Below are positions 48,569 to 64,000 of a stretch of DNA of 64,000 nt, piece by piece. Location: the NCBI GenBank assembly GCA_044229975.1, contig JBGARZ010000002.1:192001-256000 (forward strand), given 5' to 3'. The stretch's first letter is position 1; the number at the start of each line of letters is the position of its first letter. A model generated the notes under the pieces. It saw nothing but the letters and a program-made list of their open reading frames with translations, was not told the DNA's origin and made no database searches. This DNA is from Polyangiales bacterium. Lineage in GTDB: Bacteria; Myxococcota_A; Polyangia; Polyangiales; Ga0077539. Made by a program: the position numbers and the translations under genes.

Positions 48569-49753
48569 TCAATCAAGCCAGGAATCGCCCCGCTTGCCGC
48601 GCAGCTTCTGCGGGATGTACTCCTCCGTGATGAAGCGGATGCCGCGCGAAGACAGAGCCTCCAGTTCGTACTTCTTCTGCGTCTTCTTCATCAGCTGCAG
48701 CTCCTCCTGCCAGCGCTTCGCCGCGAACCAGTCGTAGCGGAGCAGCTGCTCGATGCGCGAGCTGTCCTCGTCCTTCAGCGCCATCGACACGTTGGCCTGC
48801 AGGTTGAACTTCTCCGCGTCCGAGCTCATCAACCCGAGAAAGCGCGCCTGCGGGACGGCCATGCGCATCGACTCGTACGCGAGGTTGATGCTCCCCTGCT
48901 TGATGACCGAATAGATGTAGAAGCCCCACGGGTCGTTGTCCGTGAGCACGTACACCGGGAGCTTCAGCTCGTCGTGCATGCGCCGGAGCAGACGCCGCGT
49001 GCCGCGCGCCGCCATGCCGCTGCCGTGCAGGAGCATGCAGTTGTTCTTCTGCCAGAAGCGGTCTTCGTTGAGGCGCGCCCACACGGCGCCCTTCTCGATG
49101 AAGAGGATGTACTCCGCCTCGCTCTTCATGAACTCGATGCGGTTGTCCTCCACGATGCTCGGGATGCTCCACCCGCCCGACCCCATGCGCCGCAGGTCGA
49201 TGGTGTCGCCCGTGTCGCGGATGGTCATCGGGCCCACCATCGCGCCGCGGTTCTCCGCGCGCAGGTGCAGCTCCTCGCGCAGCGCGTCGATGGTCACCTC
49301 CAGGTCTTCGATGATCGGGTCGCTCTCGGCCTGCTCCTCGAAGGTGTTCTCCTTGGTGCCCGCGACCGAGTGCTTGGCGCCGTAGTAGATGTCGCGAATC
49401 GACGTCGTCGCGCCTGCCTCGATGAGCTTCTTGCAGTGCTCCGCGATCAGGAACGTCTGCATGAACAGCTTCGCCTGCTTCAGGTGGAAGAAGTTGCGCG
49501 ACTGGCGCGACTCCCCCAGGCGAATGAGCCCCGCGTCCTGGTCGAAGCTCACGTTCGACAGCGCGCGCACCGGGATGCTCAGCGCCGGGTTCTTCCCCCG
49601 CCGCACCTCCGCCAGCGCCGTAAACGCCAGGTCGGTGATCTTCTGCAGCGTCACCTTGTCGCGCTCGCCGATCACCACGGCTTCGCCCGACCCGCTCTCC
49701 GTCGCCGCGCGCGCCGCCGTCTCGCCCGCCGGTGCCTTCTTCTTGGTTGCCAT
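48569..49753 (-). CDS. top6A: DNA topoisomerase VI subunit A (Spo11-like)
   Basis: SIRDIYY (catalytic Tyr); TOPRIM motifs FIEK and TDNDPWG; ELEAL. Confidence 0.95.
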   Translation of the reverse strand: MATKKKAPAGETAARAATESGSGEAVVIGERDKVTLQKITDLAFTALAEVRRGKNPALSIPVRALSNVSFDQDAGLIRLGESRQSRNFFHLKQAKLFMQTFLIAEHCKKLIEAGATTSIRDIYYGAKHSVAGTKENTFEEQAESDPIIEDLEVTIDALREELHLRAENRGAMVGPMTIRDTGDTIDLRRMGSGGWSIPSIVEDNRIEFMKSEAEYILFIEKGAVWARLNEDRFWQKNNCMLLHGSGMAARGTRRLLRRMHDELKLPVYVLTDNDPWGFYIYSVIKQGSINLAYESMRMAVPQARFLGLMSSDAEKFNLQANVSMALKDEDSSRIEQLLRYDWFAAKRWQEELQLMKKTQKKYELEALSSRGIRFITEEYIPQKLRGKRGDSWLD

Positions 49754-49758
49754 GGCGA

Positions 49759-51792
49759 CTACTGCTTCCTTCCGGGCTTCGACCGAACCTTCAGCACCAA
49801 CTGCCTGCCGCCTCCGGGCGTCACGTCTTCAAAGGGGTTTCCCTCCCCTTCATCGGACAACTCCGGCGGTGGCGTCGACGGACGCGCCTCCACCTTCGGC
49901 GCCTCGGACTCCACCATGTCACCCGTCGCGCTCTCCGCTCCCTCCGCCGCAGGCGCGGCGCCCTCCACGGTCGGCATCGTGATGCGCACGTGGTTGGGCA
50001 GCGCGTCGGTGAAGTCCTTGAGCACGCTCTCCTCGGACACCTTCGTGATGCTGTGAATCGAGGCCGACAGCTCCACGATGTACTTCTCGAACAAGCTCTT
50101 GCGCTGCGTCTCCCAGCGCTCCGCCTGCTGCGCCTTCACCCACGTCCCGAGCTTGCGCCCGCACTCCATCAGCGCGAGCCGGATCTCCCGCACCACCTCG
50201 TCGTAGTGCGCGACGGCCTCCTTCGCCTCGCTCGTAAACGGCACCCACACGCTCGCCAGGTGCACGAAGATCGCCAGCGGGCCGACCGGCAGCTCGCCCT
50301 TGCGCTGCGACAGCCCGTACGACTTCCAATCGACCTTCAGCACCGCCTCGTGAATCGCGCACGCCCGCGGCTGGTACAGCAGCGGAACCCGATTGGCGAA
50401 GCGCAGCACGTCGGCCGAGTCTTCTTTGGACAACGTTCCGCCAAAGGCCACGCCCGCCTCCACCACGAAGGGATTGCCGCGGTACACCGCCGGCGGCCGT
50501 GTGTGCGACGTGAAGAACTCCCCTTTGAAGCGGCGCTTCAAGCCCTCCATGATGAGCGCCTCGCCCACCGGAACCACGCACGTCGCGGGCGGTGGCAGGA
50601 TCTTCACCTGCGAGCGCGCCATCGTCTCGTAGATCTTCTCGACCATCGTCGGCGTCGACAGCTTCGCCTTCTGCGTCGGCTCCAAGCCCGAGTTGCGCAG
50701 GATCAGATCCGCCAGCGACGCGCTGAACCCCGTCCCCTCTTCCAACAGCTCTTCGCGCAGGTTGGTGTCGGACTTCGCCAGCTTGCTCGCCAGCTTGCGC
50801 GGCGGCGGTAGCGCCGCGTTCGACGCCACCATCGCGGCGTGCAGCGCCTCGATCTTCGCCGCCTCTGCCTTCGGCGCCTGCGAGTCGGGGTTGAGGTCCG
50901 CGCGCTTGCACAGCTCATCGGCGACCGCCGACGTCACCCGCGAAAACTCCTCCATCAGCGTCGCGCGCACCGTGCGCCGCCCCGCCTCGTGCAGGATCTT
51001 GATGAGCATCCCGAGCTCGACCCCGTGCGGGTGCGGCTTGATCTCCTGCGCCTCGGGCGGGAGAAATTCGCTCACCCGCGGGTAGTGCACCGCCGCACCC
51101 TTCGGCGGCTTGTACGTCAGCTCCAGGTGGGGATTGGCCACCACCGTCTGCTCCAGGTACGCGTCCACCGACGTGCGACCGCCACGGTACAAACCCGTGA
51201 GCTCGATCTCGACGGACGTGCCGTGATCCTTCTCCCACGGCGACGTGTCGTTCTTGTCATTGAGCTGCTTGGGCTCGTTGGTGCGCGAGTCGATGCGCAC
51301 CTCCACCCGCCACGCGGGGCGACCCTTGCCGATCTTGCTCACCACCACCACCGGGCGGCCCGTCGTCAGGTGGCCGTACATGCCCGCCGCGCTGATGCCG
51401 ATGCCCTGCTGCCCTCGCGACTGCCGCAGCCGGTGGAACTTCGATCCGTACAGCAGCTTCGCGAAGATCTTGGGGATCTGCTCCTTCACGATGCCGGGGC
51501 CGTTGTCCTCGACGCGCACGCGGTAGCGGCCGTCGGAGACCTCCTCCACGGTGACCTCCAGCGTCGGGAGGATGCCCGCCTCTTCACAAGCATCGAGGGC
51601 GTTGTCGACCGCCTCCTTGATGGTCGTGAGCAGCGCCTTCGCGGGGTTGTCGAAGCCCAACAGGTGGCGGTTCTTCGTGAAGAACTCGCTCACCGAGATG
51701 TCGCGCTGCTTGGCGCCCATCGCCTCGGCGCTCGACCGGCGCCCCGCTGGCTTGGGGGCGTCGGTGTCCTGGACCACTGCTTCCGTCGTCAT
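49759..51792 (-). CDS. top6B: DNA topoisomerase VI subunit B
   Basis: SVSEFFTKN, EAVDNALDA, DNGPG, QSRGQQGIG, RFANRVPLLY and VPFTSEAKEA motifs. Confidence 0.96.
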   Translation of the reverse strand: MTTEAVVQDTDAPKPAGRRSSAEAMGAKQRDISVSEFFTKNRHLLGFDNPAKALLTTIKEAVDNALDACEEAGILPTLEVTVEEVSDGRYRVRVEDNGPGIVKEQIPKIFAKLLYGSKFHRLRQSRGQQGIGISAAGMYGHLTTGRPVVVVSKIGKGRPAWRVEVRIDSRTNEPKQLNDKNDTSPWEKDHGTSVEIELTGLYRGGRTSVDAYLEQTVVANPHLELTYKPPKGAAVHYPRVSEFLPPEAQEIKPHPHGVELGMLIKILHEAGRRTVRATLMEEFSRVTSAVADELCKRADLNPDSQAPKAEAAKIEALHAAMVASNAALPPPRKLASKLAKSDTNLREELLEEGTGFSASLADLILRNSGLEPTQKAKLSTPTMVEKIYETMARSQVKILPPPATCVVPVGEALIMEGLKRRFKGEFFTSHTRPPAVYRGNPFVVEAGVAFGGTLSKEDSADVLRFANRVPLLYQPRACAIHEAVLKVDWKSYGLSQRKGELPVGPLAIFVHLASVWVPFTSEAKEAVAHYDEVVREIRLALMECGRKLGTWVKAQQAERWETQRKSLFEKYIVELSASIHSITKVSEESVLKDFTDALPNHVRITMPTVEGAAPAAEGAESATGDMVESEAPKVEARPSTPPPELSDEGEGNPFEDVTPGGGRQLVLKVRSKPGRKQ

Positions 51793-51862
51793 GGGGGCGT
51801 CTGCTCCGTCGCGGTTTTCTCTGGAGATCAACGGGTCATCCCGGCGTCTTGAACGCCCATTC

Positions 51863-51891
51863 GAGTAGAACTTCACTGAACATGCGTCAAG
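51863..51891 (-). promoter_or_regulatory. top6B promoter with overlapping LexA(SOS)-like box
   Basis: Minus strand CTTGACGCATGTTCAG (51891-51876) contains the -35 TTGACG; resembles the M. xanthus LexA consensus CTRHAMRYBYGTTCAGS. Confidence 0.55.
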
Positions 51892-60491: not shown

Positions 60492-60521
60492 TTGCGGGCG
60501 TCGCGCGGGGGGACCTATGGT
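60492..60521 (+). promoter_or_regulatory. Possible sigma70 promoter of the PARP operon
   Basis: TTGCGG-18 nt-TATGGT; GAGG RBS at 60541. Confidence 0.35.
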
Positions 60522-60551: not shown

Positions 60552-62000
60552 ATGGCGGGTGTGAAGTCGTGGAAGTTTGGTGACGCGAGCGCTCCGGCAT
60601 TTCCCGATGATTTCGAGATCGCGCGCAAGGCGGTGTTGCAGGTCACGGACATCAAGACCAACCACAACAAGTACTACGCGGTGGAGGTCCACCAGGGGAC
60701 GTTGAAGGGCAAGCCGGTGTTCCGTGTGTTCACGCACTACGGGCGCACCGATGACCTGGAGAACAACCCCGAGGCGGGGCAGAAGGAGTGCCGCTACGCC
60801 AACACGCTGGGCGAGGCGCAGGCCATCTACGACGGCATCTATCGCGAGAAGACCTCGGCGGCGAAGGGCTACAAGGAGCTGAGCCTCGCATCGAGCAAGA
60901 TCGGCTCGCAGAAGGCGCGCGGCACGAGCGCGGGCGAGGTCGACGCCAAGACCATCAAGCGGCTCGCCGAACAGAAGGTGGCGCGCGGCGAGGTCGCGGC
61001 GACGACCATCAAGGTGTCCAACCTGAGCCCGACGGTGCAGTCGTTGGTGAAGTTGATCTACGCCGAGGCGACCAACGCGCTGACGACGGCCGTCAACGTG
61101 AAGATCACGGCCAACGGCATCGAGACGCCGCTGGGCATCCTGACGGTGGGGCAGATCGAGAAGGGAGAGTCCATCCTTCAAGACCTGTACAAGCTCTTTC
61201 AACAGGGCTCGAAAAACCGCAACAAGATGATCGACCTGTCGGGGGACTTCTATACGACCATCCCGCATCGCATCGGTCGCACGCGGGCCGCCATCGATGA
61301 AGCGGTGATCGACACGATGGAGGACTTCGAGGCCAAGCAGGAGACCCTTCAGCTCATGAAGGACATGCTCCAGGTCAACGGCGACGGCGGATCGGTGCTC
61401 TTCGAGAGCAAGGTCGACGAGCAGTACGAAGCGCTCAAGTGCGGCATCACGATGCTGGAGCGGTCGAACCCGACCTACGACGAGATCGAGCAGTTCGTCC
61501 TGAAGAGCCAGATCAAGACGAAGGCCATCAAGGTGAAGAACGTCTACACCCTGCGGCGCGCTGGCGAGCACGAGGTGTTCACCAACCACATCGACAACCA
61601 GCGGCTGCTCTTCCACGGCTCGCGCATCAAGAACTGGGTGGGCATTCTCTCGCGCGGCATCCTGATGCCGAAGATCGTCGTGAGCATGGGCGTCAACCGC
61701 ACCGACGCGGGCTGGCTCGGCAACGGCATCTACTTCGGCGACGCGTCGTGCACGAGCGCGTTCTACACGTCGCCGGCGAAGTCGGGCGCGCGCTTCATGG
61801 CGCTGGCGAAGGTCGCGCTCGGCAAGATGAAGCCGTACACGAAGATCACCTACGGCATCGCCGAGGCGCCCGCGGGCTTCAACTCCTGCCACGGCGTGCG
61901 AAACCAGAAGGGCAACGACTCGCAGTTCTCCGATGACGAGTACGTGATCTACGACTCGCGTCAGCAGCGCCTGGATTACCTGGTCGAATTCACGATGTAG
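60552..62000 (+). CDS. Poly(ADP-ribose) polymerase (WGR, PARP regulatory and PARP catalytic domains)
   Basis: NHNKYY...HYGR (WGR); PLGILT...LSGDFYTTIPH (regulatory); LLFHGS, GNGIYFG and DDEYVIYD (H-Y-E triad); start re-picked at ATG 60552. Confidence 0.93.
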   Translation: MAGVKSWKFGDASAPAFPDDFEIARKAVLQVTDIKTNHNKYYAVEVHQGTLKGKPVFRVFTHYGRTDDLENNPEAGQKECRYANTLGEAQAIYDGIYREKTSAAKGYKELSLASSKIGSQKARGTSAGEVDAKTIKRLAEQKVARGEVAATTIKVSNLSPTVQSLVKLIYAEATNALTTAVNVKITANGIETPLGILTVGQIEKGESILQDLYKLFQQGSKNRNKMIDLSGDFYTTIPHRIGRTRAAIDEAVIDTMEDFEAKQETLQLMKDMLQVNGDGGSVLFESKVDEQYEALKCGITMLERSNPTYDEIEQFVLKSQIKTKAIKVKNVYTLRRAGEHEVFTNHIDNQRLLFHGSRIKNWVGILSRGILMPKIVVSMGVNRTDAGWLGNGIYFGDASCTSAFYTSPAKSGARFMALAKVALGKMKPYTKITYGIAEAPAGFNSCHGVRNQKGNDSQFSDDEYVIYDSRQQRLDYLVEFTM

Positions 62001-62011
62001 GGAGAGTTGCC

Positions 62012-62794
62012 ATGGATGCTCAGGTGATCCTGGTGGATGTGAATCCGAAGATGGTGGCGGCGTGGCGGGAGGTCTTCGTCGACCACCCGGAGGTGCTGAT
62101 CGTCCATGGGTCGATGACCGACCAGGCGACGAGCGCGTGGGTCACGCCGACCAACAGCCGCGCGCAGATGGACGGCGGGCTTGATGGGGTGATCAAGAAG
62201 TTCCTGGGGCCGTCGATCCAGACGAAGGTGCAGTCGGAGGTGGCGAAGCGGTACCAGGGGACGATGCCGCTGGGTCACGCGACCTGTGTGGCGACGGGCG
62301 CGCCGAAGCCGCGGTGGCTCATCTCGACGCCGACCATGGTGGGCCGCTCGGACGACGTGTCCGATACGCTCAACGTGGCGCTCGCGTGCGCGGCGGCATT
62401 CCAGATGGTGCGGATGCAGAACGCGGCGGCGCCGGGGAGCATCGGCTCGGTGGCGCTGCCGGGCTTGGGCGCCAACACGGGCAAGGTGCCGGTGGAGATC
62501 TGCGCCGACCTGATGTGGACGGCCTACAACCTGGTCAGCAACCAGAACTTCACGGGCTTCCACGACATGCGCGTGGCGCTGGAGGCCGAGCTCGGAGCGC
62601 TCGGCAATGACGTGCAGGCCAAGCCGGTGACGAGCGCGCCCATGTACAAGGGCGGCGTCGTGCCGACCAAGGCCGCGGTGATGGCGGCGAAGGGTCCGAT
62701 GATTCCACCGAAGGGCCCGGTGATTCCGCCGAAGGTGGTGGGTGGCGTGGTGCCGAAGCCCAAGCCGCTGGCTGACTTCGACGACACCGAGTGA
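62012..62794 (+). CDS. Macrodomain protein (ADP-ribose binding/hydrolase) with Lys/Pro-rich tail
   Basis: VTPTNS...MDGGLDGVI, STPTM and LPGLGANTG motifs; 11 nt after PARP stop. Confidence 0.88.
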   Translation: MDAQVILVDVNPKMVAAWREVFVDHPEVLIVHGSMTDQATSAWVTPTNSRAQMDGGLDGVIKKFLGPSIQTKVQSEVAKRYQGTMPLGHATCVATGAPKPRWLISTPTMVGRSDDVSDTLNVALACAAAFQMVRMQNAAAPGSIGSVALPGLGANTGKVPVEICADLMWTAYNLVSNQNFTGFHDMRVALEAELGALGNDVQAKPVTSAPMYKGGVVPTKAAVMAAKGPMIPPKGPVIPPKVVGGVVPKPKPLADFDDTE

Positions 62795-62847
62795 CCCGGT
62801 AAGTTGCCCATGAAGCGCCACCCGAAGCAGCGTCCCGGAGCATCTCC

Positions 62848-64000
62848 ATGAGCGTTCGAGGGATCGTGATGCGAATGTTCCGCCCGACCGGGGCGGAGCG
62901 GTTGGTGGCCATCTCGGCGGAGTCGGTCGCGGGGTCACCCGGGCGGCTGACGCTGAAGGTTCAGCGGTTCTTCCGGCGGGGGAAGCTCACGGGAACGGAG
63001 GCGTATGGGCCCTTCCCCGAGGCGGAGCTGGAGCAGCGGCTCGCGGACCTCGCCGACGACCTCGCGTCGGAGGGGTACACGCGCGCCGGGGTGCGGGCGA
63101 TGATCGATCGCCTGCAGAGTCCGAGCGCCCGTCGTCGCGCGATGTCGGCCGCGCGGCTCGGGTGGATCGGCGATCGCGCCGCGGTCGATCCGCTGCTTGA
63201 TCGGGCGACGTTGGAGGGCACGGAGCTCACCAGCGTGGTCGAGGCGCTGGGTCGGCTGGGCGACCTGACGGCGGCGCCGCTGGCGCGTGCAGAGGCCGAG
63301 CGGAAGCTGTTGTCGCGGCGTCGGGCGGGCGCCGAGGCGCTGCGCGCGATGGGCGATGCGGTGGGTTTGGCGGAGGTGGTGCAGCGGGCCGTCGATCGGC
63401 TGCCGCAGGCGATGCGCGACGCGTGGAAGGCGACGGACGCGAGCGCCCACGAAGAGGACGCGCTCGTCGACCTGGAGACGGTGTTCGCCCACCTCGACGT
63501 GAAGGAGCAGTTTCTCGCGTTGGACTCGCTGTATGAGGTGGCGACGCCGCTGGCGCTGGCCTTCGTGCGGCGGGTGTTGTCGACGCACGCGGAGGTGCAC
63601 CGGCCGCATCGCTGGCGATACACCAAGAGCATCCTGCGACGCGCGACGATGCGTGACGATGCGGAGACCTTCGGGGTGATCATGCGGCGGGTGGAGCTGC
63701 TGAGTCGCAAGCCGGCGATGACCATGGCGGTGGTGAAGAGCGGGCTCGACGGTCAGAGTCGGCAGACGCGGGTGTTCAGCAAGCAGACCGAGCGGCACGT
63801 TCGCAAGGCGAGCTGGCGCTACCTCGAACGCCTCGGTCGCTATCGCCCCGCCCGCTACACCGAGGTCGCGGCGGGCTTCCTCGCGGCGCTGCGCCCGGAG
63901 GATCGCGAGCTGCCGAAGGGTGACGGCGACGAGTGGTCGCGGGTGTTTCTCTACAACCGCATCCTGCGGCGCTTCGATGCGCGGGTGAGGTTGAATCCGA
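62848..64000 (+). CDS. WGR-like/HEAT-repeat protein, truncated by window end (not in ORF track)
   Basis: GGAG RBS at 62837 and ATG 62848; open to 64000: MSVRGIVMRMFRP...DDLASEGY...AARLGWIGDRAAVDPLL...VEALGRLGD...AEALRAMGD. Confidence 0.8.
   Translation, partial: MSVRGIVMRMFRPTGAERLVAISAESVAGSPGRLTLKVQRFFRRGKLTGTEAYGPFPEAELEQRLADLADDLASEGYTRAGVRAMIDRLQSPSARRRAMSAARLGWIGDRAAVDPLLDRATLEGTELTSVVEALGRLGDLTAAPLARAEAERKLLSRRRAGAEALRAMGDAVGLAEVVQRAVDRLPQAMRDAWKATDASAHEEDALVDLETVFAHLDVKEQFLALDSLYEVATPLALAFVRRVLSTHAEVHRPHRWRYTKSILRRATMRDDAETFGVIMRRVELLSRKPAMTMAVVKSGLDGQSRQTRVFSKQTERHVRKASWRYLERLGRYRPARYTEVAAGFLAALRPEDRELPKGDGDEWSRVFLYNRILRRFDARVRLNP

Follow-up and report, generated by a model that had tools for sequence, protein, structure and literature searches.

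A PARP4-like ADP-ribosyltransferase and a macrodomain protein lead a type XIII retron operon in a Polyangiales bacterium

The 64,000-nucleotide stretch of a Polyangiales bacterium genome analysed here (the window; C38:192001-256000 of a 10-Mb assembly) ends in genes for a PARP-type ADP-ribosyltransferase (ART), a macrodomain protein and a HEAT-repeat protein, which are the first three genes of a five-gene type XIII retron operon. The initial annotation, made from the window alone, had read them as a three-gene operon forming a complete poly(ADP-ribosyl)ation circuit. The open reading frame positions confirmed three closely spaced, co-oriented genes with gaps of 11 and 53 nt. Once the downstream sequence was read, however, these genes, real as they are, proved to belong to a unit of five genes and one RNA running past the window edge on the same strand: PARP, macrodomain, HEAT/WGR-like, SWIM, msr-msd RNA and reverse transcriptase (RT). 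The earlier reading missed the retron because the retron parts lie beyond that edge. The features of the unit are listed below; coordinates without a contig prefix are those of the window.

60492..60521, plus strand: weak candidate for a sigma-70-like promoter (TTGCGG, 18 nt, TATGGT), with similar hexamers seen by eye upstream of same-family relatives.
60552..62000, plus strand: PARP4/vault-PARP-like ADP-ribosyltransferase, 482 aa, with WGR, helical (HD) and catalytic (CAT) domains and H355-Y394-E463, likely a mono-ADP-ribosylating enzyme (Pfam; PDB sequence search; conservation in 187 homologs).
62012..62794, plus strand: macrodomain protein, 260 aa (~200 aa folded plus a low-complexity tail), Ymx7/YmdB-like, likely an eraser (Pfam; 26-sequence alignment; profile and fold searches).
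62848..64000, plus strand: 5' part of the gene for a HEAT/ARM (WGR_XIII) retron partner, 844 aa; whole gene C38:254848-257382 (PADLOC; HEAT repeats by profile).
C38:257379-259067, plus strand: SWIM protein, 562 aa (PADLOC SWIM_XIII).
About C38:259085-259345, plus strand: msr-msd RNA, predicted branching G at 259126 (fold z-score, covariation).
C38:259376-260761, plus strand: type XIII reverse transcriptase, 461 aa (PADLOC RT_XIII; motifs).

PADLOC matched the HEAT gene product to WGR_XIII (E = 3e-104), its neighbour to SWIM_XIII (E = 3e-181) and the RT to RT_XIII (E = 5e-158), the best of 63 PADLOC families for this enzyme. The RT retains intact NAxxH, YADD and VTG motifs, as in a clade-10 retron RT, the linked SWIM protein carries CxCx12CxH, and the HEAT/ARM (WGR-like) gene precedes the SWIM gene, as a type XIII retron requires. 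HEAT repeats had been recognised in the third gene from the start, and they are found as weak Pfam matches and by profile search, but the protein is a known type XIII retron partner and not the generic scaffold or target that had been proposed. The HEAT and SWIM genes overlap by 4 nt, and a 308-nt gap separates the SWIM and RT genes. This gap folds as a structured RNA (z = -9.8), and in a comparison of 18 loci compensatory change affects 45/60 consensus pairs, located in the terminal stem and in a long msd hairpin. The msr-msd has the terminal inverted repeats, AGC branch site and msd hairpin of type XIII, with TAGC located at the position expected for the priming G (PMC6868368). A scan of Rfam returned no relevant family for this RNA, and the multicopy single-stranded DNA (msDNA) made from it is predicted to be ~140 nt long. 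Taken together, the type XIII parts, the msr-msd structure and the TAGC identify the three window genes as the front of a retron operon.

Gene order is conserved among the loci recovered by PARP searches (30 genome and 52 metagenome loci; partial matches and those below 50% identity dropped). The macrodomain gene follows the PARP gene in 26/28 genome and 27/33 metagenome loci with at least 300 nt of downstream sequence. Where the downstream sequence extends for 6.5 kb or more, all five genes stand in order in 9/19 genome loci and 9/12 metagenome loci (two of the latter are near-duplicates). Loci with conserved order carry Myxococcota as well as Planctomycetota titles, which supports a writer and an eraser or reader conserved together in both phyla. 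The closest named relatives are Myxococcota metagenome-assembled genomes, with identity up to 89%. At a threshold of E 1e-20 the PARP itself has 907 matches, some of which are other kinds of PARP, and 119 of the best 120 lie above 60% identity. A 66%-identical PARP is attributed to Pendulispora rubella, which may be of use as a cultured model.

To avoid ascertainment, the same 301 genomes were searched with the PARP and separately with the SWIM protein. PARP was found in 28 genomes and SWIM in 65, comprising 29 with a close match (at least 51% identity) and 36 with distant matches only (at most 44%), a cut that was chosen after the data had been seen and with which the SWIM tree agrees. All 28 PARP genomes are among the 29 close-SWIM genomes, and the 36 distant-only genomes are without such a PARP. 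In the SWIM tree (92 rows, 45 of them distant and a subset of the distant matches) the 47 close sequences form one clade (SH-aLRT 100), and in the RT tree (82 rows) the 41 RTs of close-SWIM retrons likewise form one clade (SH-aLRT 97). The PARP and macrodomain are inherited with one type XIII retron clade, and the operon is a real, broadly conserved variant of this retron type.

By hand tally, the PARP and retron parts are adjacent in 13 of the 28 PARP genomes, cut by contig ends in two, and split with both parts kept in 13. The break points vary: PARP-macrodomain lies apart from HEAT-SWIM-RT in one genus, PARP lies apart from macrodomain-HEAT-SWIM-RT in G219, and in G520, G592 and G429 the PARP, the macrodomain and HEAT-SWIM occupy three separate loci and are all retained. 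Depending on the split genome, the macrodomain has remained next to the PARP or next to HEAT-SWIM (the latter in G219 and G420). In a family-level set of 31 genomes, 19 have both parts, G407 (76% complete) has the PARP only, G420 the retron side only, and two congeners (G425 and G364) have neither PARP nor SWIM; six of eight congeners have both. A second sample, 151 genomes around a Gemmataceae-titled record, gave PARP in 16, close SWIM in 12 and both in 11; the twelfth close-SWIM genome, G435, has a PARP fragment at a contig end. In broad samples the PARP was found in 5/401 and 1/251 genomes and is therefore rare outside a few families. Fisher tests of co-occurrence gave very small values, which overstate the association because kin are not independent. 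All five genes have dN/dS of 0.08-0.44 (26 pairwise comparisons, split genomes included), and distance correlations over 39 sets (PARP-SWIM 0.77, PARP-RT 0.72, SWIM-RT 0.77; computed without a host-marker control) show co-inheritance, not interaction.

Known type XIII retrons (RT clade 10; Mx162, Mx65, Sa163, Ne144; Mestre et al. 2020, PMC7736814) share with the present operon an RT with a long N terminus, a SWIM protein, a HEAT/ARM WGR-like protein, an msr-msd with TAGC, and myxobacterial and planctomycete hosts. The present operon differs by its two leading genes, for the ART and the macrodomain, which are tied to one SWIM/RT clade. The main text of PMC7736814 holds no ADP-ribose or macrodomain term (its supplement, outside this scope, may bear on the point). 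In the text and eight supplement files of PMC13712802 PARP occurs 0 times, and 0/6 Macro matches fall in type XIII rows of its table, which gives few neighbours per retron. A literature search outside subscription journals found no publication joining a retron to a PARP. Three loci (L055, L057, L063) hold another type XIII subtype, with a ~2100-aa protein between the HEAT and SWIM genes, and many genomes combine two or three type XIII retrons of different kinds. In the genome under study (G000), identical weak RT matches (27%) occur at five places (C4, C14, C32 and two on C34), probably copies of a group II intron or a comparable multicopy element.

Pfam placed WGR (26-109), PARP_reg (156-272) and PARP (308-481) domains in the first gene product, confirming the WGR, regulatory and catalytic domains read from the window, and H355, Y394 and E463 are present and invariant in 20/20 aligned homologs. 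The protein had been called PARP1/2/3-type, and its WGR-HD-CAT layout is indeed that of PARP2/3, but among PDB entries it matched human PARP4 best (E = 8e-43), with PARP2 (7e-28) and PARP1 (2e-26) behind. The ART part alone aligned to PARP4 with a single gap (E = 3e-39, compared with 1e-18 for PARP2 and 2e-15 for PARP1), and PARP4 H438, Y477 and E547 correspond to H355, Y394 and E463. On these pairwise sequence and fold matches we class the catalytic domain as PARP4/vault-type. The WGR domain has HYGR in place of the usual WGR, and its N, K, Y and R positions are invariant. The AlphaFold model of the PARP matches DNA-break-bound PARP1/2 over the whole WGR-HD-CAT chain, with PARP4 the best among catalytic-only chains. 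Its predicted local distance difference test (pLDDT) score is below 50 around the active site, so that statements about the acceptor site are based on sequence alignment.

Human PARP4 adds single ADP-ribose units despite having H-Y-E, contrary to the earlier premise that the catalytic Glu indicates a polymer. In PARP4, K903 is replaced by T484, L985/Y986 by E544/D545, M890 by N471 and an Ala by K516, and the loop is short and lacks H826; losing K903 alone turns PARP1 into a mono enzyme (PMC10711553). In the present PARP, the acceptor site of the poly-ADP-ribosylating PARP1/2 (K903, H826 loop, L985/Y986, M890) is not intact: T401 stands at the K903 position, S460/D461 at L985/Y986, W388 at M890 and I432 at PARP4 K516, and the H826 loop is short, of PARP4 length and three residues under PARP2. 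Of 187 homologs, 186 keep T401, 186 D461, 182 the short loop, 185 W388 and 183 I432. Because W388 and I432 are hydrophobic, unlike N471 and K516 of PARP4, the acceptor site is not fully PARP4-like. With three features that resemble PARP4 and two that do not, a mono product is likely; the near-invariant W388 may bind a specific acceptor.

Human PARP4 (clade 5; PMC10711553, PMC4245714) is thus the closest solved catalytic domain, sharing H-Y-E and the Thr/Asp/short-loop signature, and is likewise tied to a non-coding RNA system. The present enzyme differs in being bacterial and in having, within 482 aa, only WGR, PARP_reg and PARP, without BRCT, VIT or vWA; its WGR domain matches Pfam and, weakly, PARP3, not that of PARP4 itself. 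A link to vaults was considered and rejected: the genome has a major vault protein (MVP) gene, but MVP is found in 0/8 congeners, six of which have the PARP, and in 4/4 genomes of a genus without it. The MVP homolog (MVP_shoulder, Vault_3; G000:C36:314.7-317.2 kb, L143:6729-9167) lies beside a cytidylyltransferase-like gene, and such a homolog occurs in 21/31 genomes of the family, independent of PARP. The PARPs of Herpetosiphon aurantiacus and C. difficile CD160 have the same WGR-PARP_reg-PARP layout and H-Y-E; they group with clade 1 DNA-repair PARPs and make polymer that is reversed by PARG (PMC8120803, PMC5966428). By their descriptions they are set apart from the present PARP, which is PARP4-like and paired with a small macrodomain and a retron. 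Two unlinked WGR-HD-PARP genes are also present in the genome (G000:C11 ~407.5-409.1 kb, L059; C24:121.1-122.4 kb, L058), one of them PARP1-like, having H-Y-E and keeping Lys at the K903 position, the other divergent; relatives hold such paralogs too, and three PARPs per bacterial genome is unusual. A bacterial PARG-family gene (G000:C2 ~37.4-38.0 kb, L144) is linked to no PARP.

The second gene product is a Macro protein by Pfam, again as first annotated, and its model is confident (pLDDT 91). Model and profile searches both ranked yeast Ymx7 (1njr) first, followed by macroH2A and YmdB-like domains. N48 and D58 are invariant in 26/26 macrodomains and align with the Asn and Asp of YmdB, which we take to have a catalytic role in macrodomain hydrolases; the YmdB His position is Lys here. 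By profile and fold searches the protein is not a PARG, and DarG is a weak match. We read the macrodomain from its sequence as a likely eraser of the ADP-ribose mark. A Ymx7/YmdB-like macrodomain beside a writer with the Thr/Asp/short-loop signature of PARP4 does not support the complete poly(ADP-ribosyl)ation circuit that had been envisaged. DarT is a DNA ART that is not known to have WGR or HD. The DarT-DarG pair also differs in having no retron, and the present macrodomain is nearer Ymx7/YmdB than DarG. PADLOC had no model match of any kind for the PARP and macrodomain genes, and neither PADLOC nor NCBIfam gave a DarT or DarG match for them, in agreement with the earlier distinction from DarTG. 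DarT-DarG is alike in its adjacent ART writer and macrodomain eraser, its mono-ADP-ribose mark and its precedent in anti-phage defence (PMC9967889).

Homologs of the PARP also occur on viral contigs. Seven such loci carry it, six at 49-65% identity, and none has retron genes or a cognate macrodomain nearby; in five viral records searched whole, of which one is complete, RT and cognate macrodomain were found in 0/5. Among named phage genomes, 9/50,697 records match the PARP, at 24-38% identity and none closely. In a quick, midpoint-rooted tree of 47 of 77 rows, three viral PARPs and one phage-like metagenome PARP make up a clade that lies within the retron-linked PARPs of bacteria (SH-aLRT 99 for the 11 rows enclosing it). 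This fits a capture of the PARP from bacteria by jumbo phages, which is likely from the sequences, and the nested position points to a role in conflict. In one 459-kb viral record the PARP neighbours genes of the Ro60-like, nicotinamide phosphoribosyltransferase-like and ADP-ribosylglycohydrolase kinds. Large phage contigs (L116, L117, L119-L122, L081) are rich in NAD/ADP-ribose genes, including the PARP, a second PARP type, Ro60-like and ADP-ribosylglycohydrolase genes, and at L082:9019-11419 the PARP lies directly behind an ADP-ribosylglycohydrolase gene without macrodomain or retron. Distant homologs were seen on eukaryotic-looking metagenome contigs with interrupted matches (L098, L100, L104, L105, L110, L112), among them one 1866-aa PARP with ankyrin repeats; the two checked keep the Thr/Asp signature. 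These contigs bear on the origin of clade 5 PARPs.

We propose that the PARP and macrodomain are the output module of a type XIII retron, a retron-gated, reversible mono-ADP-ribosylation switch that probably acts against phages, a reading to which we give about even weight. The RT would produce a hairpin msDNA of ~140 nt, associated with the RT, SWIM and HEAT proteins, and the conserved WGR domain would sense this msDNA or an alteration of it. When the system is disturbed, most likely by an infecting phage, the PARP would be released to mono-ADP-ribosylate a protein or nucleic-acid target, and the macrodomain would reset the mark and keep basal activity harmless. We suggest more tentatively, as a possibility, that these retrons are a subtype of their own, with msDNA acting as allosteric ligand of a PARP4-like enzyme. 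This would form a nucleic-acid-gated, reversible mono-ADP-ribosylation immune switch, a prokaryotic counterpart and possibly the source of vault PARP, whose enzyme jumbo phages captured to jam or mimic the signal.

Several observations weigh against the proposed switch. Human PARP4 is not stimulated by RNA that it binds (PMC10711553), and the hydrophobic W388 and I432 depart from PARP4. Most type XIII retrons lack a PARP, and the core function of the retron therefore exists without it; as kin are non-independent, PARP and retron may be merely co-inherited. In addition to the post hoc identity cut, there is the single exception among the 29 close-SWIM genomes, G420 (87% complete), which keeps macrodomain-HEAT-SWIM and in which no such PARP was found, and in G429 the 3.4 kb that follow the SWIM gene showed no RT. 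In the second sample, 5/16 PARP genomes have no full close SWIM: G433 and G432 have contig ends, G967 and G998 have PARP-macrodomain but gave no close SWIM match, and the PARP of G913 contains stops. The only SWIM accompanying the PARP in G430 belongs to a sister clade, and G431 (4.5 Mb), also a PARP genome, gave no SWIM match. Finally, slow evolution, vertical inheritance, survival after scattering and housekeeping-like neighbours fit domestication better than a defence island.

The main rival is accordingly that the same msDNA-gated five-part mono-ADP-ribosylation system has been domesticated for a cellular job, such as DNA-damage, starvation or developmental signalling, which we consider rather unlikely. 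Type XIII retrons track host 16S, are vertically inherited and may be domesticated (PMC7736814); here the mean distance is smaller for the PARP (0.47) than for the RT (0.61), the genes persist after scattering, and the likeness of the PARP model to DNA-break-bound PARP1/2 would suit such a role. Domestication accords less well with the anti-phage function of characterised retrons (PMC9967889), the uptake of the PARP by jumbo phages and the patchiness of a system not found in 2/8 congeners. It is improbable, in our judgment, that PARP and macrodomain are an independent, toxin-antitoxin-like writer-eraser pair that was inserted once ahead of the retron and has been co-inherited as a passenger. 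PARP-macrodomain adjacency (26/28 genome loci) is tighter than five-gene order (9/19), 13/28 genomes are split, and G967, G998, G430 and the phages have the PARP without a close retron; but losses after splitting should leave many genomes with one half, whereas the first sample contains 0/28 PARP genomes without close SWIM and 1/29 close-SWIM genomes without PARP, and in some genomes the macrodomain lies beside the retron, away from the PARP. A poly(ADP-ribose) polymerase circuit activated by DNA breaks, as for PARP1 or the Herpetosiphon PARP, is very improbable: in its favour are H-Y-E, the WGR domain, the possibility of an acceptor adenine still being bound by W388 and I432, and the unlinked PARG-family gene of the genome, but Thr at K903, Asp at Y986 and the short H826 loop are those of mono-only PARP4, K903 loss alone suffices to make PARP1 mono (PMC10711553), the linked eraser is not a PARG, and the PARP1-like gene with Lys at the K903 position is a better PARG partner.

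Upstream of the operon, a consensus scan gave 0 promoter-like sites, and the candidate promoter is graded weak for this reason. The neighbours of the operon resemble housekeeping genes, with labels read off translations without a family scan; two adjacent genes at 48569-51876 of the window look, from their translations, like the A and B subunits of topoisomerase VI. In one soil RNA run (share 0.06), contigs of a ~90%-identical relative span the five genes and the RNA, with only short pieces of the 7-kb flank. This is a weak hint of expression, because contigs prove neither transcription nor a single transcript.

Type XIII includes the first retron found, Mx162, and we found no described output for this type in the literature, while bacterial PARPs have little known cellular setting. 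Because one clade joins a retron to an easily assayed PARP, the output of the former and the setting of the latter both become testable. The operon and its relatives also extend PARP4-like enzymes to a large bacterial and phage family, against the assumption that clade 5 PARPs arose in unikont eukaryotes (PMC4245714). If the retron switches on a single, reversible ADP-ribose tag, as is likely for the product, an unexplained retron type would gain a testable output.

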